A DNA stretch of 64,000 nt from Nitrospinaceae bacterium (GTDB lineage: Bacteria; Nitrospinota; Nitrospinia; Nitrospinales; Nitrospinaceae), in assembly GCA_965223665.1 (NCBI GenBank), contig OZ245011.1:1248001-1312000 (forward strand), in the 5' to 3' direction. Each line of letters starts with the position of its first letter. Positions within the stretch are counted from its first letter, which is position 1. The notes beneath the pieces were generated by a model. That model saw only the letters and a list, made by a program, of their open reading frames with translations. It searched no databases and was not told the DNA's origin. The translations under genes were made by a program, and so were the position numbers. This document shows positions 46,186-62,658 of the stretch, piece after piece.

Positions 46186-48891
46186 TTACCCTACATAAGC
46201 ACACTTGCTTGCAGGGGTACGGGTGTCCATATTCTTGCCACGATTGGTGTGGTCATCAATCTCAGCCGCGCAGCCAATCATTCGACCAAATAGAAAGGCC
46301 ATGAAACTCGCCCATTCAATATCCTCTTCTTTGTATTTACCCTCTTTATAATCAGACCAAACCATTTTAAGAAGAATAACCGCAATTACTGCATCCACAT
46401 TTACGCAGTAAACATTCTTAGTAACCTTCGTTTTAAAGAGGGCTTGGACTAAATGGTGATAAAAATCCAGAAACACATTATAAAGTCCCTTTTCTTTAAA
46501 TAGACCACTAACATATTCTTCACGGGGATCTACATTAACATCCTTACCTTTGAACACAGGATGATTTACGCAAGGAATCTTATCGTACGCCAAATTACCC
46601 AACCCTTTCTGCTCCTTTTTATATTTCCCATAAAAAGAAGCATACTCCGTGGCAATCTTTTCTAAATCAACACCATGTTTAGAATCAGCCGGATCCTTTA
46701 AAGCGGTATTCTTGAACTGGTCAATTAAAAATGCCGCCGCTTCATAACCATTTCCTCCATGCGCAAAACCTGTGTGGGTTAAGAACCCGATGAAGCTTTT
46801 ATTAATTTGCACTCGATCAGGTTGCTCCGGACCATCCGCACTTACCGCTCCCTTAGAGCCTTGTGCGGAAATTGTTCCCGGTCCATTAGTGATAATCAAA
46901 CCTAATAAAACTTGAAATTCAAACAATTCCCCTTCAGTAGGTTGGCGTCCCATTAATGCTAAAAAGGCCGTTTTGGTAAAACTTTGTTGTAATAGATCCT
47001 CATTTTTAACCCCACAGAATGAATCTTCTGATTGCAAATCTGCCGGGGCAGCAACACCCACCATAGTGCTAAATATCGCTCCATACCAAGGCAACCGAAC
47101 TAAAGTGGACTGAGAAATTTTCTTGGTCCTTAAACTTTGCCATCCAAGAGTTACCCATGCTGCCGCAATAATGCTGTCCATGGATACGTTTCCACCATGT
47201 TCTTTAGCAAAATCATTTAAAAAACCAAAGAATACAGACTTATCCTTAAATGCCTCAATAGCCTTTCCTGCACATGCATTAGATTCAGAAGAAAGTAAAG
47301 CTTCTTTATGACCTGCTGCTCCAGAAATTAATGATTTATAATCAAAACTCTCTTCAGGGTTATCCATTGAACTGAGTTTAAAAATATCCAGCAGTGCCGA
47401 GGCTGCATCCATGGCGGATTGAGCAGATTTTTTACCAACTATGGAAACTGCAGCAGATAAAACTGTATTAGGTGAACTTCCCGCATCTCGAGAAGCGGAA
47501 GCAGCCGCCAAAGTTGGTTTGCCGTGTTGATTCACCCCTCCATTTAATACTGCATTTACCAATTGGATACCTGTTGCAGAAGGATAAACCTTGGTAAGCG
47601 CAAACACCAGGTTCTCCTCAAACGATTTATTGGATGCATCTAAAATGGAAACATTGTGAATTTGTGAAACTTGAGTTTTGGGATCCATTTTAGAGGCTCC
47701 ACTTGCATCTTTTAAAGTTTCACGACTGGGTTGGGCTCCCACTTGTAATTTCAAAGAATCAATTTGTTGATTATAAGGGTCGATGGCTTCTACTGGTTTA
47801 ATATCTAAATTTTGAGGTAATGTAATACCATTATTGTTACCAAACCAACATTTCAAAGCAAGACTACCCTTTGGCGCAAAATCAGGTTCCGAACCATTTA
47901 ATTTCATAACAGCTGTTAATGCTTCTGGGATATGAGCAATGTTGGTAACCAAAGCGCCTTTTTTAGAAATTACTGGATTCTCCGGTGTGTAGATATCGTT
48001 CACACCAAAATACTCTTTAAACCAATTTTCTTTTGCAATAGCATCGTCCCCAGCACCTGCAAGAGACCCTGCATGTCCACAGGACTTGGTCAATTTAGCT
48101 TTCCAGCGTCCTACTACACAAGCAATAATCGGTTTGTCAGATTGTATTCCTTTTTCATACATTCCACCAGGCTCACAGTATATGACTCCCGCTTTAGATC
48201 GGTCATCATTATTAAATCCGTGAATAAATTCGTGAGGTCCATAATGGATATAAACATCTTTACCGCTGGAAACCGACGTAGTGGTTCCCCAACCAGCGGT
48301 AGATAAATAAACCGCGATGGTGGTCGTAAAGTTTCCTGAGTTTGAAAAAATAGCAACAGAACCTTTAATTAAAGATTCTTCCGGACTGTTCCCTCCTAAA
48401 GCGCCCCCTAGACGAACATGATTCCATGCATCCGCAAGCCCCAGGCAATTCCCACCAAATAAATCCACACCATTGGTTTGACAAATCGCTCGCATAATTC
48501 GCGAATCCTTTACCGAAACCTTCTCAGTCAAAACAATTACTTTTTCCAAATCCGGGTTTTCCCTGACGGCTTCAGCCACCCCATCTTTAACCCCTGATGG
48601 AGGCAAATAAACAACCGCAGTATTAAATTTATGGCCCGCTTCAATTCCTTCTTTTATTGAGTTATAAACAGGAATTTTCCCAATTTTGGTAGGTAAAGAT
48701 TTCCCTGACTTACCTGGTCCTGTTCCAAACACAATATTTCCTCCAGAATACTCATGGCTGGTTGGGGTCACCGTAGAACTCTCTTTACCCAATATATTCA
48801 AAACCACAACTCGGTCATCTTTAGTCGCAAGCTCTGACAATGAATTGATTCCGACGTAATAGGGGAATTCTCCCACTCCTTCTTTATGCAT
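46186..48891 (-). CDS. aclA: ATP-citrate lyase alpha subunit, long (901 aa) form
   Basis: CoA-binding domain, GGNCLG, SNSGNFTT, phospho-His GHAG, citryl-CoA lyase motifs AHGGNG, NHPVFK, NVDAVIA. Confidence 0.85.
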   Translation of the reverse strand: MHKEGVGEFPYYVGINSLSELATKDDRVVVLNILGKESSTVTPTSHEYSGGNIVFGTGPGKSGKSLPTKIGKIPVYNSIKEGIEAGHKFNTAVVYLPPSGVKDGVAEAVRENPDLEKVIVLTEKVSVKDSRIMRAICQTNGVDLFGGNCLGLADAWNHVRLGGALGGNSPEESLIKGSVAIFSNSGNFTTTIAVYLSTAGWGTTTSVSSGKDVYIHYGPHEFIHGFNNDDRSKAGVIYCEPGGMYEKGIQSDKPIIACVVGRWKAKLTKSCGHAGSLAGAGDDAIAKENWFKEYFGVNDIYTPENPVISKKGALVTNIAHIPEALTAVMKLNGSEPDFAPKGSLALKCWFGNNNGITLPQNLDIKPVEAIDPYNQQIDSLKLQVGAQPSRETLKDASGASKMDPKTQVSQIHNVSILDASNKSFEENLVFALTKVYPSATGIQLVNAVLNGGVNQHGKPTLAAASASRDAGSSPNTVLSAAVSIVGKKSAQSAMDAASALLDIFKLSSMDNPEESFDYKSLISGAAGHKEALLSSESNACAGKAIEAFKDKSVFFGFLNDFAKEHGGNVSMDSIIAAAWVTLGWQSLRTKKISQSTLVRLPWYGAIFSTMVGVAAPADLQSEDSFCGVKNEDLLQQSFTKTAFLALMGRQPTEGELFEFQVLLGLIITNGPGTISAQGSKGAVSADGPEQPDRVQINKSFIGFLTHTGFAHGGNGYEAAAFLIDQFKNTALKDPADSKHGVDLEKIATEYASFYGKYKKEQKGLGNLAYDKIPCVNHPVFKGKDVNVDPREEYVSGLFKEKGLYNVFLDFYHHLVQALFKTKVTKNVYCVNVDAVIAVILLKMVWSDYKEGKYKEEDIEWASFMAFLFGRMIGCAAEIDDHTNRGKNMDTRTPASKCAYVG

Positions 48892-48929
48892 TGGTTCTAA
48901 CCTCCAATTATTAAAATCTGGATTTCCAG

Positions 48930-50198
48930 TTATTTAATGTTCATACCTTTTTTAATTTCTTCTTTACCGCCATTAAGCATCCATTGGTTTACCGATTTGG
49001 CATAATTGATAACTTCAGACATCGCACTATCATGCCCAAAAAATCGGTAAGGCAACCCTAGTGAATCGCAGGTATCTCGTAAATACGACATGCCCCGAAT
49101 CAAATTTGGACCACCCCTACCAACGACGACAAACAAAGGATGAGGACCATAGGATTGGAAATACCATTTTATGCCATCAGCCATGGCACGAAAGGTTTCA
49201 TATATATCGGTATTGTTCGCTTTACCACCGATAATAAACAATACATTAGTTTGGGGTAACCAATGCTTAAAAGTAATTTTAGAAATTTCATTCATTTTTG
49301 CGTAAGGAGGGTTTCCTCCAAAATCCGAAGAAATCGTTGCATCATCACCTAGCATTTCAGTAACCATAGCGTTTGCACCACCACCAAAAGTCGGAGAAGT
49401 AATGCTTCCCTGATCATTAATTACATAAACGTCACTTTGGCCCTGATAGGTTCTTAGTTGGTTAATCTCCTGCTCAAATTCAGAGTCATCGGAGGCAAAT
49501 AAGTCATCAGGTAAATGTAAACGCTTCCAGGCAGGATCATCCTGGTCAAAGGCACATTTAAAATCACAAGCGACCGGTGTAATTCGTTTGCCATCATTTC
49601 GCATACGAATTGGATTCAATTCCAACATCAACATGCCATAGTTGTTATATAAATCCCATAACTTAGGCAGATTCTGAACCAGAGGACTAATAATGGCCTG
49701 AGGAGCTCCTAAATTAGTTAAAGCATTCGAAACATGAAATGCTTTTAACCCTGTAAGAGGATCAAAAGGAACCACTGCCAGCTTATCCGCAGGCAATTCT
49801 TCAATATCCACTCCACCATGATGGGTAATAGTCATAGCTGGGGATCGGTATTGAGTGTTGTCAGATATGGAAAAATAAACTTCGATATCCGCTGGAACAC
49901 CGCCTTCAAAAGTAACCCCATTGGATTTTGCAGTTACATTGCCGAATTCATGGGTGGCAAAATAAAGCCGCTCTTTTTCCTTTAAGGCATCGGTAATATT
50001 ATCCACACGACCGAGCAAACCGGACTTACCTTTCTTACCCACACCTCCCTTAAACACGGGCTTAATGAAAACCTGCCCATGCTTTTTAATCATTTCCTTT
50101 ATTTCATCTACACTCAGTTCAGGACCACGCACATCGGAGCGAGGAAACTCTACAAGGTCCAGCAACTTCCTCCCCCAAAGCATTCCAGTGATTTGCAT
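48930..50198 (-). CDS. aclB: ATP-citrate lyase beta subunit
   Basis: IKP...GKKGKSGL, GGVDIE, ELNP, GGGA, DFGGNP, GGKANNTDI, RGGPN. Confidence 0.88.
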   Translation of the reverse strand: MQITGMLWGRKLLDLVEFPRSDVRGPELSVDEIKEMIKKHGQVFIKPVFKGGVGKKGKSGLLGRVDNITDALKEKERLYFATHEFGNVTAKSNGVTFEGGVPADIEVYFSISDNTQYRSPAMTITHHGGVDIEELPADKLAVVPFDPLTGLKAFHVSNALTNLGAPQAIISPLVQNLPKLWDLYNNYGMLMLELNPIRMRNDGKRITPVACDFKCAFDQDDPAWKRLHLPDDLFASDDSEFEQEINQLRTYQGQSDVYVINDQGSITSPTFGGGANAMVTEMLGDDATISSDFGGNPPYAKMNEISKITFKHWLPQTNVLFIIGGKANNTDIYETFRAMADGIKWYFQSYGPHPLFVVVGRGGPNLIRGMSYLRDTCDSLGLPYRFFGHDSAMSEVINYAKSVNQWMLNGGKEEIKKGMNIK

Positions 50199-50460
50199 CT
50201 CAATTCTCCTGCCTAAAAAATTACTTAGTTTAAGTTTACCTTTTTGGGCATCTAAAATTTTGAAGTTACTGCAGGTTATTCACCCTGGTGATTGGTGAAA
50301 ACAAGCACAATTAAAAAACCAATTTTTAGAGGCCCTTTATATAAATTTTTATCATCGGGCGAACAATATATACCCTTAGAGAGCTTTCAAAAACAATACA
50401 CTCCCTGCTAATGACGGATTTATTTGGATCGAGAGTGGGAACTCTAGATTGGAACGCACT

Positions 50461-50488
50461 ATTTTAAAAAAATTAGCGATTTTGTCAA
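50461..50488 (-). promoter_or_regulatory. Putative sigma70 promoter of aclBA
   Basis: Minus strand TTGACA-N16-TAAAAT, about 260 nt upstream of the aclB ATG. Confidence 0.55.
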
Positions 50489-50708: not shown

Positions 50709-53700
50709 TTATTTCTTCTTTCCTCCTTTTTTGCTTCCACTTTCTTGGTGGTCACAAACGATTACATCGGCATGAGCAATGATGTATAGCGCTTGCTCTT
50801 CAAAGCTTCCTAATTGATAGGTAACACTACCATCAGGATTGACCGTAGCAAGGTCATTGGAGTTAAATTGACCTGGTGCTGCTGGATCTGGACCATTGTC
50901 AGCTTCAGTAGATACGTTGAGGTGCGTATTCAAAAGCACGAAACCATCATCCAACACGTAGGTTACAGTGGCATTGTTTGGATCAGAGTAATCAATGATC
51001 ACTTTACCTACCAAGGTTCCCTTACTCAGGTCATTTCCACCGGCTCCAGTATAAAGGTTAGCTTCATAGATTTGACCCGCTTCCAGGGGACCTAATTGCC
51101 ATCCCCATCGATCCGCAGTCAAACCTAAATCGATGAAAGTTGTACTTAAAGCATCACCCAGGTACGCAAAGCCTGTTTCATCGAAACAATCCACAGGAAT
51201 TTCATCGTCATCCTCGTCCTCAGGAACTGGCGGAGGATTGTTCGGGTCATCATCATCGTCACTGTTAACAAAAGCTACGTTTTTGACAACCTTAGCTTGG
51301 ACATCGTCCTGAGTCACTTCCACACCAACAATTAGAGGATCATTGGTCGGATCAACAGGACAGGTTCCACCCGGTGCTACTGCATCACATTCTTCTATTG
51401 AAGTACCTGCAGGAACCACGGCACCATCCAAGATGACATCTCTATCATCAGTAACGACCATATCAAGAGTTACGTTACCAGTGTTTGTGGCTAAAATTTC
51501 GAAGTACACCACATCACCTAGAGAAATGCCGCCATTACCGTCGTTATCATCGAAATCGAATTCACCCGTATCTGTTTTAACAGCGGTTTTAACAATTTCA
51601 TGTGCAGGATTCTGCGGTAACGGCTCGGTATGATCATCAGGATCGTCTACCGGACAATTTGCCGCCGTACACTGACCCGTCGCCAGCGCTGTATTAAAGA
51701 ACGATCCACTGTCGATGTCCGCTTGCGTTAACGTATAACTACCGGTAAAGGTCGTGCTGTCAGAAGCGCCCGGTGCCAACGTTGCAATCGGACCGCCACT
51801 GATCGTCACTCCACCCACAGTGTCCGCAAGTGTAATATTGGTTAACGTCACATTACCAATATTAGTCACGGTGAAGTTGTAACTGATCGTTTCACCTGCA
51901 TCGGCAAATCCATCACCGTTCTCATCCTGGAAACTTCCAGTCTTCTCTAACTCAATTCCAGGATTCTGCGGTAACGGCTCGGTATGATCATCAGGATCGT
52001 CTACCGGACAATTTGCCGCCGTACACTGACCCGTCGTCAACGCTGTATTAAAGAACGATCCACTGTCGATGTCCGCTTGCGTTAACGTATAACTACCGGT
52101 AAAGGTCGTGCTGTCAGAAGCGCCCGGTGCCAACGTTGCAATCGGACCGCCACTGATCGTCACTCCACCCACAGTGTCCGCAAGCGTAATATTGGTTAAC
52201 GTCACATTACCAATATTAGTCACGGTGAAGTTGTAACTGATCGTTTCACCTGCATCGGCAAATCCATTACCGTTCTCATCCTGGAAACTTCCAGTCTTCT
52301 CTAACTCAATTCCAGGATTCTGCGGTAACGGCTCGTCATTATCATCGTCATCTGTTGCACAATCGATTGAACCATTCGGACAATCACCCGTGGTAAGCGC
52401 CAAATTCTCACGATGACCCGCATCTATGTCGGCTTGAGTTACTACATAACTGCCAGTACATTGCACACTTTCGCCCGGATCCAGAATGCCGTCAAACGCT
52501 CCACAATCCACAGTGATCACAGGATCGGTAACATCAACATTACTCAAGGTCACGTTTCCAATGTTGGTTACGGTCAACGTATAGCTAATGGTCTCACCCA
52601 CCTGGGCAAATCCGTCACCACTCTCATCCTGGAATTCACCTTCCTTGACAATCTGAATCTTTGGATCTTGTGGTAATGGTTCATCGTCATCATCCTCATC
52701 TTCTGCACAATCGATTGAACCATTCGGACAATCACCCGTGGTAAGCGCCAAATTCTCACGATGACCCGCATCTATGTCGTCTTGAGTTACCACATAACTG
52801 CCGGTACATTGCACGCTTTCACCCGGATCCAGAATGCCGTCAAACGCTCCACAATCTACAGTGATCACAGGGTCAGTAACATCAACATTAGTCAGGGTTA
52901 CATTACCCGTGTTAGTCACATCCAAAGTGTAGCTGATAGTTTCACCCACCTGGGCAAACCCATCCCCATTCTCATCCTGGAATTCACCTTCCTTGACAAT
53001 CTGAATCTTTGGATCTTGTGGTAATGGTTCATCGTCATCATCCTCATCTTCTGCACAATCGATTGAACCATTCGGACAATCACCCGTGGTAAGCGCCAAA
53101 TTCTCACGATGACCCGCATCTATGTCGACTTGAGTTACCACATAACTGCCGGTACATTGCACGCTTTCACCCGGATCCAGAATGCCGTCAAACGCTCCAC
53201 AATCTACAGTGATCACAGGGTCAGTAACATCAACATTAGTCAGGGTTACATTACCCGTGTTAGTCACATCCAAAGTGTAGCTGATAGTTTCACCCACCTG
53301 GGCAAACCCATCCCCATTCTCATCCTGGAATTCACCTTCCTTGATAATTTCAATCTTAGGGTCCTGATTAATTGTCAATACCACATCATCGGTAAGATTG
53401 AAGGGTTCAAAACATCCACCTTCAGGAGCTTCGATTGCCAATTGAGCTGAGTTCGTTAACGTACCCGCTTCAATATCATCCTGAGTGATGTTGTAAGTCA
53501 TTTGACAATTAAGGGATGCATTTGGTGCCAAAGTCTGCTGACCTACCGGACAATCACCATTGATGATTCCAGTCAACCCATCAGTAAGGGTTGCAACCAC
53601 AGAGGATGTACCATTGTTAGTCGCGCTGAACTGATAGGTAATCTCATCATCAACCGCTAACTCAGCAGAGGAACCCTCCACATACTCCACACCATTGATT

Positions 53701-55997
53701 AGCAAAGTTTTTGTGAAGCTCACGTCTACATGAGGTGCTATATCCACAACCACCGGTAAAGATTGTTCCATCAGATCATCACCTACTGGAACACCACCTA
53801 CTGCACTTGCAGTGTTGGTAATAGAGCAAGCATCCACATCCGCTTGAGTTACGGTGTAACCGACGATGACATCACAACCTGCACCCGGCAACAAATTAGC
53901 CGAACATTCTGCATTGGTTGTTCCAGTTAAATCATCGGAAACCGTGACAGGAGAAAGCGGAAGGTTTCCGGTGTTCAACACCATAATTTCGTAGAACAGG
54001 TTATCCCCTGCCGTAATGGTGGGATTATTATCACCATCTACAGAACCATCCACATTTTGAAAACAGGAAACATCCGGAATTTGCTCTCCCGGATTGTTAG
54101 GATCTTCCATGAAATTCACATCCGGATCCGAACAATCTTTTAGCAAGTTAATAGATTTTGTGATAGCCATACTCGGAGTGCCAATCTTAACCACCGCATC
54201 ATCTTGCACTTCTGGCACTGGCTGTCCACTTATGGCGTCATCAGCATTAGCTCGAGCTGTATTTTTTATTTCACAAAGCTCAACACCATCAACCTGCATG
54301 CAGGTAACTCCTGTGGTTGATTTCGTGATCTCCTTGCTACAAGTGAAGTTCCAGGTTTCTCCAGATTCGAGTATTCCGTCTGAATCAATATCACCCTCAT
54401 TAAAACCATTAACTAAAACAGGATTAATAGGGGAACAAGTCCCAGGACCCAAGTCATCTGTGACCACAACATTTGTAACAGCTCCATCGGTGGTAACAGC
54501 ATAAGAGTAAATTACAGTTTCACCCTCAAAGATGAGCATTTTGTCAGGGGTTTTTTCGATAAAAATAGAGGAAGGAGCAAGAACTCCAACATCAGCATTG
54601 GTGGGTTCAGTGACTACATTATCGTCTGGATTTAAATCTGGAAAATTAAAAAATACTTCCGCCACATTACACAAATCCGGAACTCCAGAGAGATTCCCAT
54701 CATCACTTTGTGAACAAAACCCATCCACAGCTTGAGTATCTGTATCATTGGATAATCCCTCTAACGGTTGATCCGGAAGTTGTACCACGATTTCAATATT
54801 GACAATTTCTCCTGGTTCGACATTAAATAAATCACAGGTGACTAAATGAGCCCCACCATCATAAGAACAATTTCGACCCTGACCGTCAGGATCAACCGTT
54901 GCACTTACAAATTCGGTTTTTGAATCTAAAGTATCCTCAACCACCACACCCGTTGCTGTATCAGTTTCGTGAGTATTAGTTACTTGTAAAGTATAGGTCA
55001 AAGGAGGATAAACTACTACTGGCTCACCATTAACCAATTGAGCGGTACCCTGTAAAGGATCGGGTTCATCATGTTTTTCAATAATTAAATCAATTTCTGG
55101 AATAACTCCCACCAAATCTTTGATTTGTTTCAAAGGAACGGTTTGATTACCCGCTGAAATGGTATTGGCAGGGGTTGAACTGTCAACGGGTTGTCCATCT
55201 ATTTCAACTACTTTTCCATGAATAATAGAGGCTTGTAAATTACCCGTTGGAGATTCTCCATTACACCCGAGACGTGCATCAATACGAAAAATAACCGTTT
55301 CCCCAGGTTCCAGGTCATCAATTTGAACACTGGAAAGCACATCGGATCCTGAAGTAAAAGCCGGTCCCGTTAATGTCCCATTCAAATCGGTACCATCATG
55401 AGGGTCTGCCCCAGCAGAAACAAAAGAAACCGTACTTCCTAAAGAACCTATAAGGATATTACTGTCGCCCAATACCGGATTAATTTGGAAATCATCGTTT
55501 ATACCCGAATCCAAACCAAAAAAACCGGCCCCGGGATTGTTTCCGGTATCATCGTCTCCGTTTTCAACAGCACCATAATTTATGAGTGTATTATCTACAG
55601 AAGTGTAAGCGGCACCTGATTGCCCGGTTGTATCAGCGGTAAAACTAAAATCCAATTGGATGGTTTGATTCCCTACAGCTCCGGGATCCACATCGATTTT
55701 CACCATATGAGAGACTAAGTCTCCACAAGCGTAATCAGCAGCTTCCAATTCCTCACGGATATCGGCCGTTTCGTTATTGGTCCCATCATTAAACGCCCCG
55801 CCACCAGTGGAATGGGTATAGGTAAATGGAGCAGCTCCAACAAAATTCAAGCTAAAATCTCCACCATCGGCATAAGCCTTAATTGGATTTAAGGATAAAA
55901 AAGTACTTAAAAAAAAGGATACAAAAAAAAGTAATAAATTACTTTTTAAAAAGTGACCTTTTGTTTCAAAATTACTTCTTGTGTCTGAACCGCGCAT
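50709..55997 (-). CDS. Large secreted acidic repeat protein (DUF11/DUF7507-like Ig repeats), probable adhesin or surface protein
   Basis: Signal peptide ending AYA-D; repeated I..EK...GETISY...VTN.GNVTL..V...D units; D.NGDG motifs; paired Cys. Confidence 0.88.
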   Translation of the reverse strand: MRGSDTRSNFETKGHFLKSNLLLFFVSFFLSTFLSLNPIKAYADGGDFSLNFVGAAPFTYTHSTGGGAFNDGTNNETADIREELEAADYACGDLVSHMVKIDVDPGAVGNQTIQLDFSFTADTTGQSGAAYTSVDNTLINYGAVENGDDDTGNNPGAGFFGLDSGINDDFQINPVLGDSNILIGSLGSTVSFVSAGADPHDGTDLNGTLTGPAFTSGSDVLSSVQIDDLEPGETVIFRIDARLGCNGESPTGNLQASIIHGKVVEIDGQPVDSSTPANTISAGNQTVPLKQIKDLVGVIPEIDLIIEKHDEPDPLQGTAQLVNGEPVVVYPPLTYTLQVTNTHETDTATGVVVEDTLDSKTEFVSATVDPDGQGRNCSYDGGAHLVTCDLFNVEPGEIVNIEIVVQLPDQPLEGLSNDTDTQAVDGFCSQSDDGNLSGVPDLCNVAEVFFNFPDLNPDDNVVTEPTNADVGVLAPSSIFIEKTPDKMLIFEGETVIYSYAVTTDGAVTNVVVTDDLGPGTCSPINPVLVNGFNEGDIDSDGILESGETWNFTCSKEITKSTTGVTCMQVDGVELCEIKNTARANADDAISGQPVPEVQDDAVVKIGTPSMAITKSINLLKDCSDPDVNFMEDPNNPGEQIPDVSCFQNVDGSVDGDNNPTITAGDNLFYEIMVLNTGNLPLSPVTVSDDLTGTTNAECSANLLPGAGCDVIVGYTVTQADVDACSITNTASAVGGVPVGDDLMEQSLPVVVDIAPHVDVSFTKTLLINGVEYVEGSSAELAVDDEITYQFSATNNGTSSVVATLTDGLTGIINGDCPVGQQTLAPNASLNCQMTYNITQDDIEAGTLTNSAQLAIEAPEGGCFEPFNLTDDVVLTINQDPKIEIIKEGEFQDENGDGFAQVGETISYTLDVTNTGNVTLTNVDVTDPVITVDCGAFDGILDPGESVQCTGSYVVTQVDIDAGHRENLALTTGDCPNGSIDCAEDEDDDDEPLPQDPKIQIVKEGEFQDENGDGFAQVGETISYTLDVTNTGNVTLTNVDVTDPVITVDCGAFDGILDPGESVQCTGSYVVTQDDIDAGHRENLALTTGDCPNGSIDCAEDEDDDDEPLPQDPKIQIVKEGEFQDESGDGFAQVGETISYTLTVTNIGNVTLSNVDVTDPVITVDCGAFDGILDPGESVQCTGSYVVTQADIDAGHRENLALTTGDCPNGSIDCATDDDDNDEPLPQNPGIELEKTGSFQDENGNGFADAGETISYNFTVTNIGNVTLTNITLADTVGGVTISGGPIATLAPGASDSTTFTGSYTLTQADIDSGSFFNTALTTGQCTAANCPVDDPDDHTEPLPQNPGIELEKTGSFQDENGDGFADAGETISYNFTVTNIGNVTLTNITLADTVGGVTISGGPIATLAPGASDSTTFTGSYTLTQADIDSGSFFNTALATGQCTAANCPVDDPDDHTEPLPQNPAHEIVKTAVKTDTGEFDFDDNDGNGGISLGDVVYFEILATNTGNVTLDMVVTDDRDVILDGAVVPAGTSIEECDAVAPGGTCPVDPTNDPLIVGVEVTQDDVQAKVVKNVAFVNSDDDDDPNNPPPVPEDEDDDEIPVDCFDETGFAYLGDALSTTFIDLGLTADRWGWQLGPLEAGQIYEANLYTGAGGNDLSKGTLVGKVIIDYSDPNNATVTYVLDDGFVLLNTHLNVSTEADNGPDPAAPGQFNSNDLATVNPDGSVTYQLGSFEEQALYIIAHADVIVCDHQESGSKKGGKKK
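51607..52320. repeat. Two near-identical intragenic tandem units, period 354 bp (118 aa)
   Basis: GGATTCTGCGGTAACGGCTC recurs at 51607, 51961 and 52315. Confidence 0.93.
52321..53345. repeat. Three near-identical intragenic tandem units, period 348 bp (116 aa)
   Basis: ATGACCCGCATCTATGTC recurs at about 52413, 52761 and 53109. Confidence 0.93.
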
Positions 55998-56117
55998 TTT
56001 TCCTCCCGGGAAACTTCACCTTAAAATTGATTTTTCAACAATTTTCAAATTTACAATTTATTTTATTCAAAAAGAAACTCTATTGGGGTATGAATATTTT
56101 TCGCAAAATGATCCATT

Positions 56118-56172
56118 AGCTAAACCATAAATTTTTGGTTTAGCTTATAATAAATTCGGAAAATATTGTCAA
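56118..56172 (-). promoter_or_regulatory. Putative sigma70 promoter with overlapping inverted-repeat operator
   Basis: Minus strand TTGACA-N17-TATAAG; AGCTAAACCA-N8-TGGTTTAGCT at 56118..56145. Confidence 0.55.
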
Positions 56173-56391
56173 TAGAAGAAAATTCGATCTAACTAAAATC
56201 ATCGAATATCGGATAAATTTAAAAGCACTCCATTTAGGTAGGCCCTTTGTTTACAAGGGTTTCAAAAATCCTTCTCTTTCGAAATTTTTTTTAAAAATTT
56301 TTAAAAAAATTTTAATTTCGAAACAAAATCTAATGGGAAATTAAATTTTTGGTGGGAAACTTTATTAATGCCAATGGAATTAAAAGAGAAA

Positions 56392-57192
56392 TTAATAGGA
56401 ATAAAAAAGTCTCTTGTTTAACTCACTCACCCTAAGATTTTTTTCATTCTCTGAGATAAATTTTTGAGAGTAGTCTTGGTTGAGCATCAAGATTTCAAAT
56501 TCCAATGCATGCCGGACAGCATTCGAATACGATTGGTGAGAGTGCACATCAAAAGTAACGATGCGCGTATTAAATTTATCCGGATTTATTTTGGTAAGTA
56601 ATCCATCTATGGATTCAGGTGAGATTCCTCCGCCCACGGAAACCTTCAACCCATAGTTGCGGATTTTTTGAACTGCCTTGCCCACTACTTTTTGCACATC
56701 AGCATCGGTTACACTCCTTTTCATTGATTTGGAAAGATCACTGCAACCAATGGTAATCTCATCGAGATCTTTAGCAAAAGGGCTTTCTAAAATAGAATCT
56801 AATTGCTGAATTGAAACTTTCGTTTCAATGTTTATATGTTTTTTAATTCTTTTGTACTGAATGGGAGTAGTATAACTTTTTATAGCTTCAATAAAGTTTT
56901 CCAGACCATATTCTGATTCCACCATCGGAGCAATTAATCCTTCGATCGGCAAATTCAATAATTGTTTTATATCGTTCCGTGCATTTGGTCCACCAATCTT
57001 TACCATAATAGGTATGGTATCCAGACAGATCTCAGACCAAAAAGCAATTTGCGCAATAGTCATTCCCGCATCTTCCGTCGATAGCTTTATACAAGACGCA
57101 TTAAAATCTTCCACCAATTCAACCATCGCAGCTTTTTCTGCAGCTACTTTTGAATAAGGAACAACTTTAAGTGCCGCGCGACGAGTTTTCAT
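56392..57192 (-). CDS. HpcH/HpaI aldolase / citrate lyase (CitE) family protein
   Basis: VKIGG..A..D, IAPMVES, INIET, IGCSDLS, VGGGI. Confidence 0.8.
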   Translation of the reverse strand: MKTRRAALKVVPYSKVAAEKAAMVELVEDFNASCIKLSTEDAGMTIAQIAFWSEICLDTIPIMVKIGGPNARNDIKQLLNLPIEGLIAPMVESEYGLENFIEAIKSYTTPIQYKRIKKHINIETKVSIQQLDSILESPFAKDLDEITIGCSDLSKSMKRSVTDADVQKVVGKAVQKIRNYGLKVSVGGGISPESIDGLLTKINPDKFNTRIVTFDVHSHQSYSNAVRHALEFEILMLNQDYSQKFISENEKNLRVSELNKRLFYSY

Positions 57193-59447
57193 TACAGTAC
57201 TCCTTTTTTATCTCTAACTATGATCGAGGGATCAATTTTTTCAATAGAAGAACATCCTGTCAATATCATTGCCTTTCGCAATTCATTGAGTTTTTGTTTT
57301 AAATAAAAACTAACACCTTCCATTCCCGCTCCAAAAGCAGCAATACAAATAGGTCGCCCAATCATCACTGCATCCGCCCCCAGTGCAAGCATTTTTAAAA
57401 CATCCACTCCCTCTCGAATTCCTCCATCCACTAATATCTTTATGCGACCCGCTACAGCATTTGCAATTTCCGGTAGAACATCGGCAGTTCCGGGCATGTA
57501 GTCCATGACTCGGCCTCCATGGTTAGAAACCACAATGGCGTCTGCCCCTGCTTCCACTGCCATCAATGCCGATTCGGGGTTCATTATTCCCTTCAATATA
57601 AATGGAACTTTTAAGTGGCTTTTCAATTCCTGCAGTTCTTCTATAGATTTTGGGCTTACATTCTGCCCTTTTAAAGCCATCGTCTTGAAGGAGGCCGCAT
57701 CAATATCAATTCCAACCGCTAATGCCCCAGCATCCTCTGCTGCCTGAAACCGTTTAATAATATCCAGGTTAAACTCGCGTGGTTTAAAAATAGGGACTCC
57801 AAGGCCCCCTCTCCTTTTTATTGCGTCCAAACCAATTAAATACTTTTTCGGGTTGGCACCATCTCCTACCATTCCCAGAGTCCCACTGTCTAAACACCCA
57901 TCCAGTACAGCATCGGCATATTCTTTTTCATCCATTCCTCCAGCGAGATTCGTTTCCATTCCTGTGATAGGGGCAGCTAAAATAGGAAGGGCTAATTTTT
58001 TTCCAAATAATTCGATGGATAAGTCAGGGTTTTTTACCGAATGGATGGTCCGCAAATTAAGTTTATATTTTGCCAAAGCCCGTAAATTTTCATGAAAAGA
58101 ACCTCCGGTTCCAATGCCACCGATTCCCGGCACTTTTCCCGAACACTCCACTCCGTCACAGACAACACAAGCCTTACAGGCAACGTAGAATTTCTTCCGT
58201 GCATTGTTTCGAATAATGTCCCAGGTCAACTTGCAAGGAGAACCCGTTTCAATCCGTATGGTTTCACGAGCCAGATCATTGACTCGGATAGCTTCTTCCC
58301 GGGTTTTACCTGTTGAGATAACATAGCCGGTTTTACCCATATTGCTGGTAACCTCTCCTACCATATCGCCGGCTTCTTTCATTAATATTACTTCCCGAAC
58401 ACCCCGAATTTTGCGTGCATCATCTACCCCACGAATGGACAAAATTTTTCCTGGTGAAGGTATAAGAGCCCGTTCCGCTGATACCATTTGAATCTTTGGC
58501 TTTAAATCATCGGGAGGTAAACCCAATGCCACTTGAATCATGGCTTTATAAAGATTTACTCCTGTAGCAAGAGGAAATGTGTATGCCGACATCCAACCTC
58601 CACTTAAGCGGGCAGCTACCTCCACAATCTTTGCTCCATCAGGGGATACTTTAATATCTCCTTTTGCAGCTCCTAAATTTATACCCAAGGCCTGGATGGC
58701 CGCTCGGAATACCTGTACCGCTTCATTTTGTTTATTTTCGGGTAAATTTGAGGGTAAAGTGTGCCCCACCTCTACAAAATGAGGTGATCGTTCAATTATT
58801 CGGTCTGCAATTCCTGTAATAGTAATTTCTCCATTGTAAATAATGGCATCTAAACTCAATTCCGGACCTTCCATAAATTCTTCAAGAATTAAGTTCCCAC
58901 TTATAGAAGCTTCCTTAGCTTCTTTAAAAGCAACAGGTAAATCTTCTTTTCGTTCAATCTTCCTGACCCCACGGGCACCCATATTGTCACAGGGTTTAAT
59001 AACGAGAGGTAAAGACAATTCTTCTAATACGGCTTGACCTTCTTCTAAAGTCCAAATAGGGCGAAATTCAGGAATGGGGACATTAAATTGTTTTAACCGT
59101 CGCCGCATTTTTATTTTATCGGTTGCACGTTCAGCCACTTCAAAAGGAATACCGGGAAGGTTTAACGCGTTGGCCACAGCCGCTACAGTTTGTGAAGCAT
59201 CGGTACCAACAGTGAGGACTCCGTTTATCGGACAGGTTAGATGGAACTGTTTAGCCACGTTAACCGTAAGATTAATATTGCGGGTGCTTACAACCAAAGG
59301 GTAGTCCGCAATTAACATACCAGGTGCTTCCGGATCGTAATCCGTCACGACCACTCTTAGTTTCATTTCTTTGGCGACTTTAATGAGAGGGACTTGAAAA
59401 ATTCCGCCGCCAATAATCAATATATGTTTGGGACGGTCAATGACCAT
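57192..59447 (-). CDS. Fusion of ATP-grasp ligase and FMN-dependent alpha-hydroxy acid dehydrogenase with a four-Cys motif
   Basis: N-half: DKIKMR, VIKP.D.MGARGV, EEFMEGPELS, EVAARLSGG. C-half: CKACVVCDGVEC, APITG, LKGI, SNHGGRVMD, DGGIR.G.DVLK.LALGA...GRP. Confidence 0.88.
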   Translation of the reverse strand: MVIDRPKHILIIGGGIFQVPLIKVAKEMKLRVVVTDYDPEAPGMLIADYPLVVSTRNINLTVNVAKQFHLTCPINGVLTVGTDASQTVAAVANALNLPGIPFEVAERATDKIKMRRRLKQFNVPIPEFRPIWTLEEGQAVLEELSLPLVIKPCDNMGARGVRKIERKEDLPVAFKEAKEASISGNLILEEFMEGPELSLDAIIYNGEITITGIADRIIERSPHFVEVGHTLPSNLPENKQNEAVQVFRAAIQALGINLGAAKGDIKVSPDGAKIVEVAARLSGGWMSAYTFPLATGVNLYKAMIQVALGLPPDDLKPKIQMVSAERALIPSPGKILSIRGVDDARKIRGVREVILMKEAGDMVGEVTSNMGKTGYVISTGKTREEAIRVNDLARETIRIETGSPCKLTWDIIRNNARKKFYVACKACVVCDGVECSGKVPGIGGIGTGGSFHENLRALAKYKLNLRTIHSVKNPDLSIELFGKKLALPILAAPITGMETNLAGGMDEKEYADAVLDGCLDSGTLGMVGDGANPKKYLIGLDAIKRRGGLGVPIFKPREFNLDIIKRFQAAEDAGALAVGIDIDAASFKTMALKGQNVSPKSIEELQELKSHLKVPFILKGIMNPESALMAVEAGADAIVVSNHGGRVMDYMPGTADVLPEIANAVAGRIKILVDGGIREGVDVLKMLALGADAVMIGRPICIAAFGAGMEGVSFYLKQKLNELRKAMILTGCSSIEKIDPSIIVRDKKGVL

Positions 59448-59645
59448 GTAATAACTCCATATATTTTCTAATAGTCTTCAGGGTGGAAGATAGAATATTT
59501 AAATACCCTTTTTTATCGACAATTTGAGGGAGATTCTTTAAATCGAGGCCATGCATGTCAATTCATTATCACGCAAAAACCTTTGAAAAATCAAATATTT
59601 AAATAATTTTAGGAATCAAGGGGAAATGAGGTTTTGTCAAATTTT

Positions 59646-60044
59646 TTATAGGAGAGTCATATCATCCTGGTAGCTATCCTTGATTTGTTCAAGAACAAAC
59701 CCGTTTAAGTTTCTAAGGTCAGCACCCTGCAAGTAAGCTCCAGCAAATTTGGCTCCCCTAACATGTGCGCCTCTAAAATCAGACATCATGAGATCAGCCT
59801 CCTCAAAGTTTGTATTCTCTAATCGAGCATTTTCAAATATTGTATCTTGCAGGTTGGCACCTCTTAGGTCGGCGCCTCTTAAATCTGCAAATGAAAAGCG
59901 GCTACCCATTAAATCCGCTTCAACCAAAACCGCATTGCAGAGTACAGAGTGTTCGAAGTTTATCCCGCGAAGTATGGCTCGGCTTCCTTGATCTCCCTTT
60001 GATTTAAACCAAAGTTCATGATCTTCAAGAATTTTTTCCAGCAT
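59646..60044 (-). CDS. Pentapeptide repeat protein
   Basis: IL..H..W....G..G.RA N-cap, ADLRG/ANLQD repeats. Confidence 0.9.
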   Translation of the reverse strand: MLEKILEDHELWFKSKGDQGSRAILRGINFEHSVLCNAVLVEADLMGSRFSFADLRGADLRGANLQDTIFENARLENTNFEEADLMMSDFRGAHVRGAKFAGAYLQGADLRNLNGFVLEQIKDSYQDDMTLL

Positions 60045-60050
60045 TTTGAC

Positions 60051-60536
60051 TCACGTTTCGTTAATGCGTTTAACTTGATCCAGGCACTCAAACGTTTCTT
60101 CTCCAGTCCATTGAATATCCAGATAATCTGGTAATTTGGTAGAGCGATCCACCCGTGCTGAATGAAGTTGTTGGCAGGTTAAATTAATAATTAATGTCAT
60201 ATCTGCTCCCCGCAAATCAGCATTTTCAAACCTTGCTTTACTTACCGAGCAATGGGCAAAATTCGTCCGTCTTAAATTGGCTCCAGAAAAATTCGTTCCA
60301 ATACACTCGGCTCTCTCCAGGTTGGAACCAAATAAATTAGCTTGAGTTAGATCGGCGGTACTTAAACTGGCTCCCCCTAATTTTGCATTTTCCAATTTGG
60401 TTCCAACCAGCTTTGCCTTACGCAGATTGGTTTCCCTCAAATCACCCTCGGAAAGATCAGCGTTCCTTAAATCCTTTCCGAGTAAATTGAGTTTTTGTAA
60501 TTTATGTTTATTCGATTCAGCTTCTTTTCGATCCAT
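60051..60536 (-). CDS. Pentapeptide repeat protein
   Basis: A[DN]L.. repeats, C-cap LTCQQL..A......LP. Confidence 0.9.
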   Translation of the reverse strand: MDRKEAESNKHKLQKLNLLGKDLRNADLSEGDLRETNLRKAKLVGTKLENAKLGGASLSTADLTQANLFGSNLERAECIGTNFSGANLRRTNFAHCSVSKARFENADLRGADMTLIINLTCQQLHSARVDRSTKLPDYLDIQWTGEETFECLDQVKRINET

Positions 60537-60542
60537 TGAAAA

Positions 60543-61016
60543 TTAGAATAAAAAAGGTTTGAACAACATTAAAAAAAAGATGAGACCCACTGCAGGAAAT
60601 GCGGCCACCCCCAACCAAAACCATTGCCTTTCATACTCCCAATATTTTACAGGTAATTCTTCCTGGTGTTCTTTAAAAGCATGACTTGCTAACTTTTTCA
60701 TTTTCCATTGCAAAACGAAAGCCGCCAACCAACAAACACCGGCCACAACATATAAGAACAAAGATAATAATATCCACGATGCAAAATATGCAAAACCTCC
60801 CATTTGGATCAAATGATACCCAGTCCAAGGAACAATAAAAACCGTAGGCACAGTAAACAGAAAATCTGCTAAAAGGACGTTCCTACAGGCAAAATGTATA
60901 ACTGCTAAATTACGACTGACATTCGCACGATAAAACCAAAAAGCAGTTCCCAGACCAGTCCCCAAAAGAATTATCACAGATAAAATATGAACAAATTTAA
61001 GCCAGAAATAAGTCAT
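60543..61016 (-). CDS. DUF2269 family integral membrane protein
   Basis: KFVHILS...GTG.G, ADFLFT.P, W..LG..AF......LM.FKP. Confidence 0.88.
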   Translation of the reverse strand: MTYFWLKFVHILSVIILLGTGLGTAFWFYRANVSRNLAVIHFACRNVLLADFLFTVPTVFIVPWTGYHLIQMGGFAYFASWILLSLFLYVVAGVCWLAAFVLQWKMKKLASHAFKEHQEELPVKYWEYERQWFWLGVAAFPAVGLIFFLMLFKPFLF

Positions 61017-61125
61017 AATTTTTTAATTTTATAGGATGTGACTTCAATTATGTTGTTTTTATTCACTTTTTCCTTAGTTGACATTAAATTGTTTCCACAC
61101 CCTTTCTATGGTAAATAAGTAAATT

Positions 61126-62658
61126 ATGATATCTCGTGTATTCAGTGGAGCCGTAATGGGCATCGAGGGTTACCTGGTGGAAGTGGAGGTCAACCTGACA
61201 AATCATGTTCCCGGAATGTCCATTGTCGGTCTTCCGGATGCGGCAGTTCGAGAAAGTAGTGACCGTGTCGAAGCGGCAATAAGAAACACTTTACAAACGA
61301 TGCCGCTTTATAAAATCACGGTAAACTTAGCTCCTGCCAATATCAAAAAAGAAGGTTCTGCTTTTGATCTTCCCATCGCCATTGGAATATTAGCGGCTGA
61401 TGGATTAATTGAAAAAAATAAACTATCTCAACTCATGATACTTGGAGAGCTTTCTCTGGATGGACGTATACGTCCAATAAAGGGGGCATTGTCTATTGCC
61501 GCACAGGCAAGAGATCAAGGTTTTGAGGGAATTTTGCTGCCACAAGAAAACGCAGCAGAGGCGGCTGTTGTAGAAGGTTTAAAAGTTTACCCGGTAAACG
61601 ATCTTCCTTCAGCTATTTCTTTTTTAAACGGAGAAACTGAAATCGCTCCGAAAATTTCTGATCCTGAAAAAGATTTTTCCGATTATTCCAGTTACGACAT
61701 TGATTTCACAGATGTCAAAGGACAGCATCATGTAAAACGAACATTAGAAATTGCTGCCGCAGGAGGACACAATATTATTTTAATAGGTCCACCCGGTAGT
61801 GGAAAGTCCATGCTCGCTAAAAGGGTCCCTACCATATTACCTTCGCTCACATTAGAAGAGGCCATTGAATCCACAAAAATTCACAGTGTGATGGGATATT
61901 TAGATAACGGCTGTGGATTATTAAGTACGCGGGTGTTTCGGTCGCCACACCATACTATTTCAGATGCAGGTTTAATTGGGGGAGGCAAATTTCCTATGCC
62001 GGGTGAAGTATCGCTGGCACACAATGGAGTATTATTTCTGGACGAATTACCCGAGTTTAAGCGCAATGCATTAGAGGTTTTACGACAACCCCTTGAAGAT
62101 GGAAAAGTTTCTATTTCCCGGGCCGCAGGCTCTATCACCTACCCCACTCACTTTATGTTGGTGGCTGCCATGAATCCCTGCCCTTGCGGTTACCGAACTG
62201 ACCGCAAACGGGAGTGCCAATGTAATCCTCTTCAAATAAAAAAGTATGTTTCAAGAATTTCTGGGCCTCTCTTAGATCGCATTGATCTTCATGTTGAGGT
62301 CCCCTCTGTGGAATATAAAGATCTTTCTTCAAATTCCATTGGCGAGCCCTCGAATACTATTCGGGAAAGAGTAGAAGAAGCTCGCCAAATCCAATTACAA
62401 CGATTTATCTTAACGAAAACGTTTTTTAATTCGCGAATGAACACGAAACAGCTACAAAAATTTTGTCAATTGGACGAGCCTTCTCAAAAAATTATGTCCT
62501 TAGCTATTGATAAACTGGGATTGAGCGCGCGCGCCCATGATCGAATACTTAAAGTTTCACGTACTATTGCCGACCTGGAAAAATCTGATCAAATTTTGCC
62601 AGAATATGTTGCTGAGGCTATTCAATATCGTTCATTAGATAGAGAAAGTTTTTTCTAA
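61126..62658 (+). CDS. comM: YifB/ComM Mg-chelatase-like AAA ATPase
   Basis: IVGLPD.AVRES, NLAPA..KKEG..FDLPIA, GPPGSGKSM, FRSPHH, NPCPCG, SGPLLDRID. Confidence 0.95.
   Translation: MISRVFSGAVMGIEGYLVEVEVNLTNHVPGMSIVGLPDAAVRESSDRVEAAIRNTLQTMPLYKITVNLAPANIKKEGSAFDLPIAIGILAADGLIEKNKLSQLMILGELSLDGRIRPIKGALSIAAQARDQGFEGILLPQENAAEAAVVEGLKVYPVNDLPSAISFLNGETEIAPKISDPEKDFSDYSSYDIDFTDVKGQHHVKRTLEIAAAGGHNIILIGPPGSGKSMLAKRVPTILPSLTLEEAIESTKIHSVMGYLDNGCGLLSTRVFRSPHHTISDAGLIGGGKFPMPGEVSLAHNGVLFLDELPEFKRNALEVLRQPLEDGKVSISRAAGSITYPTHFMLVAAMNPCPCGYRTDRKRECQCNPLQIKKYVSRISGPLLDRIDLHVEVPSVEYKDLSSNSIGEPSNTIRERVEEARQIQLQRFILTKTFFNSRMNTKQLQKFCQLDEPSQKIMSLAIDKLGLSARAHDRILKVSRTIADLEKSDQILPEYVAEAIQYRSLDRESFF

Follow-up and report, generated by a model that had tools for sequence, protein, structure and literature searches.

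An ATP-grasp ligase fused to a cysteine-capped FMN_dh-type barrel in Nitrospinota and other bacteria

What might a bacterium do with a protein in which an ATP-grasp ligase is joined to a flavin mononucleotide (FMN)-dependent barrel of the FMN_dh family? The question is raised by a pair of genes in a 64,000-nucleotide stretch from a Nitrospinaceae bacterium (assembly GCA_965223665.1, contig OZ245011.1, positions 1,248,001 to 1,312,000), which is called the window here and whose own numbering is used throughout. The first gene, P0001 (57192..59447, minus strand), encodes a 751-residue fusion of an ATP-grasp ligase and a Cys-capped FMN_dh barrel, as delimited by the open reading frame (ORF) list, the translation and Pfam. 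The second, P0002 (56392..57192, minus strand), encodes a 266-residue protein that Pfam and its predicted fold place as a divergent triose-phosphate isomerase (TIM) barrel of the HpcH/HpaI-CitE-pyruvate-kinase, or phosphoenolpyruvate (PEP)/pyruvate, superfamily. The original prediction, made from the sequence of the window, combined the two proteins into a pathway of three activities.

The fusion protein and its two halves

The translations of the fusion and P0002 are stop-free over 751 and 266 codons, and the uninterrupted reading frame on which the original prediction was built therefore stands. The fusion is a single-copy gene in its genome. Logan contigs from three runs of one sample (X1, X2 and X4) span the whole fusion ORF, including the junction of the two halves at about 58230, and show zero differences from the window within the ORF; no stop or frameshift is present at the junction. 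All three runs come from that one sample, which is probably the source of the assembly. Four runs of one sample are listed as containing the stretch, with no RNA run among them. Full-length collinear matches to the fusion recur in many independent genomes of several phyla. Because the uninterrupted fusion recurs in many other genomes and contigs cross its junction, the fusion is a real gene and not an assembly artefact.

The ligase half consists of residues 1-404 (58236..59447, minus strand), as placed by Pfam, the PDB sequence match and Foldseek. Pfam ATP-grasp_4 matches residues 145-287 with 66.3 bits (cut-off 27), ATP-grasp_3 matches too, and LAL_C2 matches residues 328-401 with 67.6 bits (cut-off 29.4); the ATP-grasp and LAL_C2 matches together span residues 108-401. 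The closest sequence match in the PDB is 3vot (expect value (E) of 4e-33). An AF2 model of the fusion has a mean predicted local distance difference test score (pLDDT) of 92.8 and a low predicted template modeling score (pTM) of 0.61, and a Foldseek search with this model returned 3vot_B (E 4.5e-34, template modeling (TM) score 0.88 normalized to the target). Conservation was assessed in an alignment of 19 diverse fusions, which share 35-55% identity with the protein of the window; K151, E189, E196, E276, R280 and S282-G283-G284 are unchanged in all of them. We take K151 in the VIKP strand, the Glu residues and the Arg-x-SGG motif to have the nucleotide- and Mg-binding roles of ATP-grasp enzymes. 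None of the NCBIfam ligase equivalogs is reached by the fusion, the top one (NF002563) scoring 153 bits against a cut-off of 625. These matches identify the half as a predicted ligase with an ATP-grasp domain of the L-amino-acid-ligase type, including the C-terminal subdomain that had been recognized at the outset.

The flavin half consists of residues 405-751 (57195..58235, minus strand), as placed by Pfam and PDB profile matches. Pfam FMN_dh matches in two stretches with 232.1 bits (E 1.2e-68, cut-off 24.9), the best of which covers residues 600-744, and the translation contains the motifs KGI (619-621), SNHGGR (641-646), DGGIR (674-678) and GRP (697-699). The PDB profile matches include lactate oxidase (1.3e-92) and glycolate oxidase (6.9e-58), and the best Foldseek match of this half is mandelate oxidase (TM 0.76 normalized to the target). 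The SNHGGR segment (57510..57527, minus strand), which holds His643 and Arg646, aligns with SNHG(A/G)R of the oxidases. K619 is invariant and H643 and R646 are nearly invariant in the 19 fusions, where D581 is also conserved; the H, G, G and R of SNHGGR and the Lys are invariant in 15 stand-alone relatives. His643 and Arg646 are presumably the catalytic residues of the FMN_dh family, and K619 the lysine at flavin N1.

The flavin half starts with a four-cysteine motif, C424-x2-C427-x2-C430-x4-C435 (58143..58178, minus strand), followed by PG(M/I)GG. The motif is nearly invariant in the 19 fusions and invariant in the 15 stand-alone relatives, and the cap is presumed to bind a metal (Fe-S or Zn). 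The Cys region is modeled less confidently than the rest, with 10-residue blocks averaging 64-85 over residues 411-450. The place occupied by the cap is, we assume, where classical enzymes hold an N-terminal substrate tyrosine (Tyr24). The NCBIfam equivalogs for L-lactate oxidase, LldD and MftD lie far below their cut-offs (TIGR02708, 122 against 645.5; NF033901, 142.5 against 550; TIGR03966, 121 against 470.85), and the IDI-2 equivalog likewise. The original prediction had called this barrel complete; its motifs and its 232-bit match are borne out, but the substrate Arg and the Q-L-Y Tyr of the classical enzymes are missing and the four-Cys cap is present. By these features the flavin half is a non-canonical member of the FMN_dh family. 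Because the active site is altered, the automatic names "glycolate oxidase", "L-lactate dehydrogenase" and "alpha-hydroxy-acid oxidizing protein" are probably misleading.

The coupled barrel and the range of the family

The stop codon of the fusion and the start codon of P0002 have one base in common within a TAATG at 57190-57194, the overlap described in the original prediction, and an AAGGAG at 57200-57205 lies five bases 5' of the ATG (57190..57205, minus strand, as read from the sequence). Among the relatives' loci that hold both genes, 17 of 24 have them spaced at -4 to +3 nucleotides (nt). This arrangement indicates that the fusion and P0002 are translationally coupled. An AT-rich spacer of 394 nt lies 3' of P0002 (55998..56391; GC fraction 0.266 in the bin 56000-56499), and the spacer 5' of the fusion measures 198 nt (59448-59645). 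The idea that such spacers isolate the pair fits the window but not its relatives, in which acl genes lie 180-340 nt away (20 of the 27 loci that show an aclB-like gene). An Rfam search at E up to 1 over 55800-61200 gave no match and no riboswitch near the pair. The coding (minus) strand of 55998-56391 has no ORF of 50 amino acids (aa) or more, the plus strand has ORFs of 78 and 49 aa, and the small ORFs on the coding strand of both spacers offered nothing convincing.

P0002 matches Pfam HpcH_HpaI with 29.6 bits against a cut-off of 25. This marginal match is backed by the predicted fold, which upholds the HpcH/CitE-like nature of the partner: the model (pLDDT 92.3) shows the TIM-barrel fold typical of the PEP/pyruvate superfamily, Foldseek returned HpaI 7et9 (E 6.6e-10; TM 0.58-0.60), and VIA gave GarL (Z 17.1, root-mean-square deviation 3.4 over 199 residues), CLYBL (16.7), pyruvate kinase (16.7), malyl-CoA lyase (16.4) and CitE (16.3). 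The fold scores of the model tie across aldolases, CitE-type lyases and pyruvate kinase, and no subfamily is nameable from them. Alignment with HpaI placed residues 121-156 (NIET ... GCSDLS; 56725..56832, minus strand), in which E123 and D152 are invariant among 26 P0002 sequences and align with E149 and D175 of Escherichia coli HpaI (4b5s). We take E149 and D175 of HpaI, and hence E123 and D152, to be metal ligands. At position 56717, inside P0002, the contigs of X3 and X4 have A and the window and X1 have C, with X2 lacking coverage; the difference is probably strain variation within one sample.

A search of the fusion against 5.8 billion protein clusters gave 1237 matches at E <=0.001. The best 120 of the 1237 are all fusions or pieces of them, are 72-96% identical and mostly about 750 aa long, and have Nitrospinaceae, Nitrospinales, Candidatus Nitrohelix and Candidatus Nitronauta as named sources. 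Within Nitrospinota the fusion was counted at a best E of 1e-100 or lower and is present in 63 of 120 genomes and in none of the remaining 57. It was not found in the four genomes of genus g3 (4/4; 96-99% complete), in genera g5, g12 and g21, in part of g18, or in families f6 to f9. An even sampling of 151 Spirochaetota genomes contained 115 with a match at E <=1e-100 and 103 with a full-length collinear match, including genomes of 1.4-1.5 Mb. A scan of one genome per species found fusions from Leptospirales, Leptospiraceae, other Spirochaetota metagenome-assembled genomes, Candidatus Coatesbacteria and other bacteria. Homologs are thus not always separate genes, and the fusion recurs in Nitrospinota, Spirochaetota and Coatesbacteria.

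At the 50% identity level, full-length fusions make up at least 18 clusters and share 35-56% identity with the window's protein. Ligases that stand alone occur there too, some about 400 aa long and others, with a C-terminal extension, about 540 aa. Cys-capped flavin proteins without a ligase, about 340 aa in length, also exist, and one such cluster is from Romboutsia under the name "alpha-hydroxy-acid oxidizing protein". A single branch splits fused from stand-alone forms in a tree of 38 flavin domains (support 99/97). By these comparisons the architecture is common and old, and it is a stable, selected unit. Among the stand-alone ligases, relatives P0154, P0160 and P0164 have a C-terminal extension of about 140 aa that has no Pfam match and contains a common W-x-A-x-LRGG-x-QG segment. 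Among the Cys-capped flavin proteins, P0155 has an N-terminal segment, RREFLASAAVVGAGA, which to our eye resembles a twin-arginine export signal, and P0213 is joined to a HAD_2 phosphatase domain.

The P0002 family is small, with 242 matches at E <=0.001 in 5.8 billion proteins. A close homologue is present in 54 of the 63 fusion-bearing and 1 of the 57 fusion-less Nitrospinota genomes (G038, at a contig edge). A P0002 profile search was positive in 64 of the 120 genomes, with the same tally and per-genus counts as the protein search, and the family was found by neither protein nor profile in the other 56. P0002 is missing from nine fusion-bearing Nitrospinota genomes: two are fragmentary, and the other seven belong to genus g20, five of them with a distant paralogue at another place. 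A separate class of P0002 paralogues, which score about 134-160 bits with the P0002 profile, occurs in g20, G100, G010 and G011, with or without the fusion. When the genome of the window was searched for the HpcH family, P0002 itself was missed, and the search is therefore insensitive for this family; a second weak HpcH/HpaI-like frame (35.6 bits) lies outside the window at G000:C1:4182380-4182820. A language-model search returned a P0002-like "aldolase family" cluster whose commonest phylum is Spirochaetota (score 0.96) and another whose commonest phylum is Nucleocytoviricota (0.95; phylum known for 4 members only).

P0002 adjoins the fusion in 38 of 80 loci, downstream in the 37 of Nitrospinota type and upstream in L076. 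The 42 loci without an adjoining P0002 comprise five contigs that end at the fusion, two (L055 and L057) that run directly from the fusion to aclB, and 35 others, namely L067 and loci of Spirochaetota, Coatesbacteria and other bacteria. Among five fusion-bearing genomes tested outside Nitrospinota, one has a P0002-like gene, which is unlinked there. P0002 is therefore a lineage-specific add-on almost confined to Nitrospinota and not a constant third step. The three activities do not form the unit that had been proposed, given these 38 loci and the 103 Spirochaetota genomes with a full-length fusion.

Across 23 loci, the fusion has a median identity of 77.5% to its counterpart in the window, P0002 one of 55.3%, aclB one of 82.0% and aclA one of 72.8%; where it is kept, the fusion is constrained like a core enzyme. 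The pair has been repeatedly lost within one genus. In the complete genome G073 the fusion is gone and a frameshifted 3' remnant of P0002 (residues 125-262; L197, G073:C1:2594625-2595045) sits 246 nt 5' of an intact aclB; its sister genomes G072 and G052 have no remnant of the pair. In Leptospira interrogans, LA2659 is annotated with the same two domains as the fusion and is listed among macrophage-responsive genes with ratios that include 2.77 and 3.59 (PMC2964297). We infer from that annotation and the frequency of the family in Spirochaetota that LA2659 is a family member.

Predicted chemistry, neighboring genes and alternatives

The domains of both halves are intact and modeled with confidence, and their catalytic residues are conserved in the 19 fusions (K151, E276 and R280 in the ligase; K619, H643, R646 and D581 in the flavin half). 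As a general idea, a combination of oxidation, C-C chemistry and ligation is plausible for the predicted domains. The reading we favor, tentatively and somewhat short of calling it probable, has the fusion performing two steps on one small metabolite derived from a 2-hydroxy or 2-oxo acid and ending in an amide. The flavin half would withdraw two electrons at C2 of a substrate of the 2-hydroxy-acid type, yielding a 2-oxo compound, and would hand them to the metal site or to some external acceptor, which need not be O2. In Nitrospinota, the coupled P0002 barrel would carry out Mg-dependent C-C chemistry on the 2-oxo acid. The acid, or an amino acid formed from it by a general aminotransferase, would then be ligated: the ligase half would use ATP to convert the carboxylate into an acyl phosphate, which it would couple with an amine. 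The end product would be a small amide or a dipeptide-like compound. Each chemical step is inferred, and so are the substrate, the sequence of events and the metal site. In both Coatesbacteria loci (L068 and L073), the gene directly 5' of the fusion on the same strand encodes a class I/II aminotransferase, and such a gene also precedes the flavin gene at 2 of the 80 stand-alone loci (L138 and L166); these adjoining aminotransferases fit a free 2-oxo acid as the intermediate.

Several findings weigh against this scheme. Within the 20 residues that follow D581/D583, neither the 19 fusions nor the 15 stand-alone relatives have a conserved Arg, and K-P is invariant where glycolate oxidase has Q-L-Y, the "lyv" of 5zbm being an insertion relative to the family profile. 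In the passages on spinach GOX in PMC10153336, R164 is termed invariant. The missing substrate Arg and Q-L-Y Tyr suggest that a free 2-hydroxy acid may not be the substrate. The catalytic Arg70 of HpaI has no aligned Arg in P0002 and corresponds, by spacing from the IKQLL segment, to I66, which has the invariant K65 and R72 close by. P0002 is not an obligatory step, because it is absent from most fusion-bearing genomes outside Nitrospinota. Neither a ligase nor P0002 is nearby in any of 80 metagenome loci of stand-alone flavin relatives, and the flavin domain can therefore work without the ligase. Outside Nitrospinota the neighbors of the fusion vary (among them GlpX, MnmA, GGDEF, a metallo-beta-lactamase-fold protein and a hydrolase) and give no pathway. 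Finally, the two fused activities of the scheme need not be consecutive, which is unusual in fusions.

Other neighborhoods were surveyed as well. The 80 stand-alone flavin loci have no common metabolic neighbor and lie among housekeeping genes of unrelated function (MatE, pseudouridine synthase, RNase HII and others). Six of 10 spirochaete loci (L200-L202, L205, L208 and L209) have DUF2225 and TPR genes, the latter encoding about 640 aa, 5' of the fusion on the same strand; these are directly 5' in three loci, and the remaining three have genes for a GAF-SpoIIE phosphatase and a STAS protein in between, with an inositol monophosphatase gene 3' of the fusion. A divergent TPR gene (about 615 aa) lies 5' of the fusion in many Nitrospinota. 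A TPR gene as the shared partner was rejected, since the spirochaete and Nitrospinota TPR proteins match in their TPR repeats only (E 4e-5, 122 residues).

A wider proposal, possible but doubtful, is that the family makes a small metabolite with an amide bond, to serve as a cofactor, a signal or a building block for the envelope, that is common to most spirochaetes and half of the marine nitrite oxidizers. It would do so by means of an FMN_dh-type barrel wired to an Fe-S or other metal center and acting on a substrate without a free carboxylate, for example a 2-hydroxyacyl amide, coupled to a ligase that makes or consumes that substrate, and the enolate-forming barrel would extend the pathway in Nitrospinota. 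Such metal-wired, amide-directed chemistry, if true, would be new for both parent families.

In the main rival reading ligation precedes oxidation, an order that we regard as unlikely. A 2-hydroxy acid and an amine would be joined to an amide, the amide would be oxidized to a 2-oxoacyl amide, and P0002 would act on that product. The loss from the flavin half of the residues that classical members use for a free carboxylate is in keeping with this order, as is the absence of an Arg at the HpaI R70 place in P0002. The title of 6a3t describes mandelate oxidase R163L with 2-hydroxy-phenylacetamide, which makes the loss of the Arg compatible with amide binding, and fused domains usually perform consecutive steps. 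However, the stand-alone relatives have the same altered site and four-Cys cap with no ligase nearby in any of their 80 loci, and we know of no LAL-type ligase that takes a 2-hydroxy acid.

The usual order in Nitrospinota, all on one strand, is the fusion, P0002, the short AT-rich spacer, aclB and aclA. In the window, Pfam and synteny identify divergent ATP-citrate-lyase-like genes at 46186..50198 on the minus strand (aclB-like, 48930-50198; aclA-like, 46186-48891), one with ATP-grasp_2 and Citrate_bind domains and the other with CoA_binding and Succ_CoA_lig. The aclA-like protein (901 aa) has a weak C-terminal match of citrate-synthase type (E 1.6e-4, below cut-off). An ATP-citrate lyase (ACL) of low similarity is described for Nitrospina gracilis in the relevant passage of PMC3578206. 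Between the pair and the acl genes, domain search and synteny place a gene for a 1762-aa surface protein with DUF7507/DUF11 repeats (50709..55997, minus strand). It looks inserted, because the gaps of 180-340 nt elsewhere leave no room for it, and a related 1878-aa surface-protein gene is at the same place in the close relative L024. The 1762-aa protein has eight DUF7507 repeats and DUF11/CARDB-like domains, and several of its repeats of about 95 aa are nearly identical.

Two conserved motifs accompany these genes. The promoter-like element TTGACA-N16/17-TAnAAT (50460..50488, minus strand) is invariant in 10 of 10 aligned spacers, the region 5' of the window's own acl genes among them, and lies about 260-290 nt 5' of aclB in the window and nearer in relatives. 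The motif TTAAAG-N15-GTCGATAA (59513..59541, minus strand) lies 5' of the fusion, where its columns are invariant in 10 of 10 aligned upstream regions; its pattern has its own site as the sole match in the genome, and a reversed control pattern matched once. It is probably a promoter or operator of the pair. General scans were not above shuffled sequence, with 10 sigma-70 sites found against a shuffle mean of 10.3 and two terminators against 4.5. Directly 5' of the pair, at 59646-61016 on the minus strand, are two pentapeptide-repeat genes (132 and 161 aa) and a DUF2269 membrane-protein gene, and farther upstream are a ComM/Mg-chelatase-like gene and an OprB-family porin gene.

The conserved gene order, found with its short gap across several Nitrospinota families, raises the question of whether the pair serves the reductive tricarboxylic acid (rTCA) cycle or citrate cleavage, with P0002 as a lyase of the citryl- or malyl-CoA type and the fusion handling a hydroxy-acid by-product. 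The fold of P0002 ties with CLYBL, malyl-CoA lyase and CitE (Z 16.3-16.7), and the fusion is conserved like the acl genes. We nevertheless consider this role improbable. All five fusion-less genomes tested keep aclB (79-88% identity), 57 of the 120 Nitrospinota genomes do without the fusion, and most Spirochaetota have the fusion without an acl context. We do not take the order for a functional unit, because the acl genes have their own invariant element and fusion-less genomes keep aclB, and because G073 lost the fusion and retains only the frameshifted P0002 next to an intact aclB while the aclA-like protein has a citrate-synthase-type match of its own. The pair appears to be an accessory transcription unit and not part of the adjoining citrate-cleaving enzyme. 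The narrower candidate, P0002 as the citryl-CoA lyase of the adjoining ACL, was rejected because the P0002 family is missing in 56 of 120 genomes and aclB persists without the pair.

Little credence is given to a peptide or protein end as the substrate, to which the ATP-grasp half would add a residue for the flavin half to oxidize, in the manner of MftD on the mycofactocin precursor. Some ATP-grasp ligases act on peptides, MftD belongs to the same Pfam family (TIGR03966, 121 bits), and an altered carboxylate site would suit a tethered substrate. Against this, the MftD model is reached far below its cut-off, the spacers contain no conserved small ORF, no partner gene is conserved across phyla, and the ligase is nearest to free-amino-acid ligases.

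Photorespiratory glycolate salvage, the alternative that accompanied the original prediction, is very improbable. It would convert glycolate to glyoxylate followed by aldol or Claisen chemistry, and the name "glycolate oxidase" given to some members by their sources and the HAD phosphatase domain of relative P0213 speak for it. The RuBisCO large subunit, which did match in control genomes, was not found in the 98.6%-complete genome; acl genes of the rTCA type adjoin, the flavin site lacks the substrate residues of glycolate oxidase, and the ligase has no role in the scheme. Replacement of pantothenate synthesis was also considered and rejected, since the genome has panB (PF02548, 389 bits) and panC (PF02569, 350 bits). 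An assembly or gene-calling artefact can be set aside, in view of the full-length collinear matches in independent genomes of several phyla and the contigs of three runs that cross the junction unchanged.

Significance and relation to known systems

The literature search found no paper on the fusion family and no characterization of its architecture, in line with the original prediction; supplements, which lie outside such a search, may list the gene. FMN_dh enzymes are tested in PMC8491902, in whose searchable text "ATP-grasp" does not occur, and the passage of PMC10839748 on Nitrospinota mentions an NAD-dependent lactate dehydrogenase alone. The parent families are well known, and the fused, Cys-capped form is abundant in databases under automatic names only. 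In Nitrospinota, the main marine nitrite oxidizers, the fusion is as conserved as the adjoining carbon-fixation enzyme, yet it has been repeatedly lost, and this combination of conservation and repeated loss is in keeping with a trait that is important under certain conditions. Working out what the family does would put a name to a gene carried by many spirochaetes and Nitrospinota and might reveal a metabolite, and the breadth and conservation of the family make it a good target for experiment.

The ligase half shares its fold, LAL_C2 included, with the L-amino acid ligases BL00235 of Bacillus licheniformis (3vot), RizA (4wd3) and BacD/YwfE (3vmm). The Lys/Glu/Arg and SGG ATP-grasp motifs of these enzymes are kept in the fusion, which differs from them in being only about 19-23% identical over the ligase half and in being joined to a flavin barrel. 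The flavin half has the TIM barrel and catalytic motifs of the FMN-dependent 2-hydroxy-acid oxidases (glycolate, L-lactate, mandelate and 4-hydroxymandelate oxidase, flavocytochrome b2 and MftD). It has a four-Cys cap in place of their Tyr24 segment, and unlike glycolate oxidase it has no counterpart of the conserved R164 and has K-P instead of Q-L-Y. It also falls into a clade of its own with the stand-alone proteins of about 340 aa from anaerobes such as Romboutsia.

P0002 has the same barrel as the class II pyruvate aldolases HpaI/HpcH, GarL and YfaU and the CitE-type lyases (CLYBL, malyl-CoA lyase and citrate lyase beta). Compared with HpaI it keeps the counterparts of E149 and D175 and lacks an Arg at the R70 place, and the sequence match is marginal. 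The closest parallels in logic are VanH-VanA and PanB-PanE-PanC, which pair the redox chemistry of 2-oxo and 2-hydroxy acids with ATP-dependent ligation, the Pan enzymes adding an enolate-forming barrel. The protein families differ from those of the fusion: VanH and PanE depend on NAD(P), and PanC lies outside the ATP-grasp superfamily.

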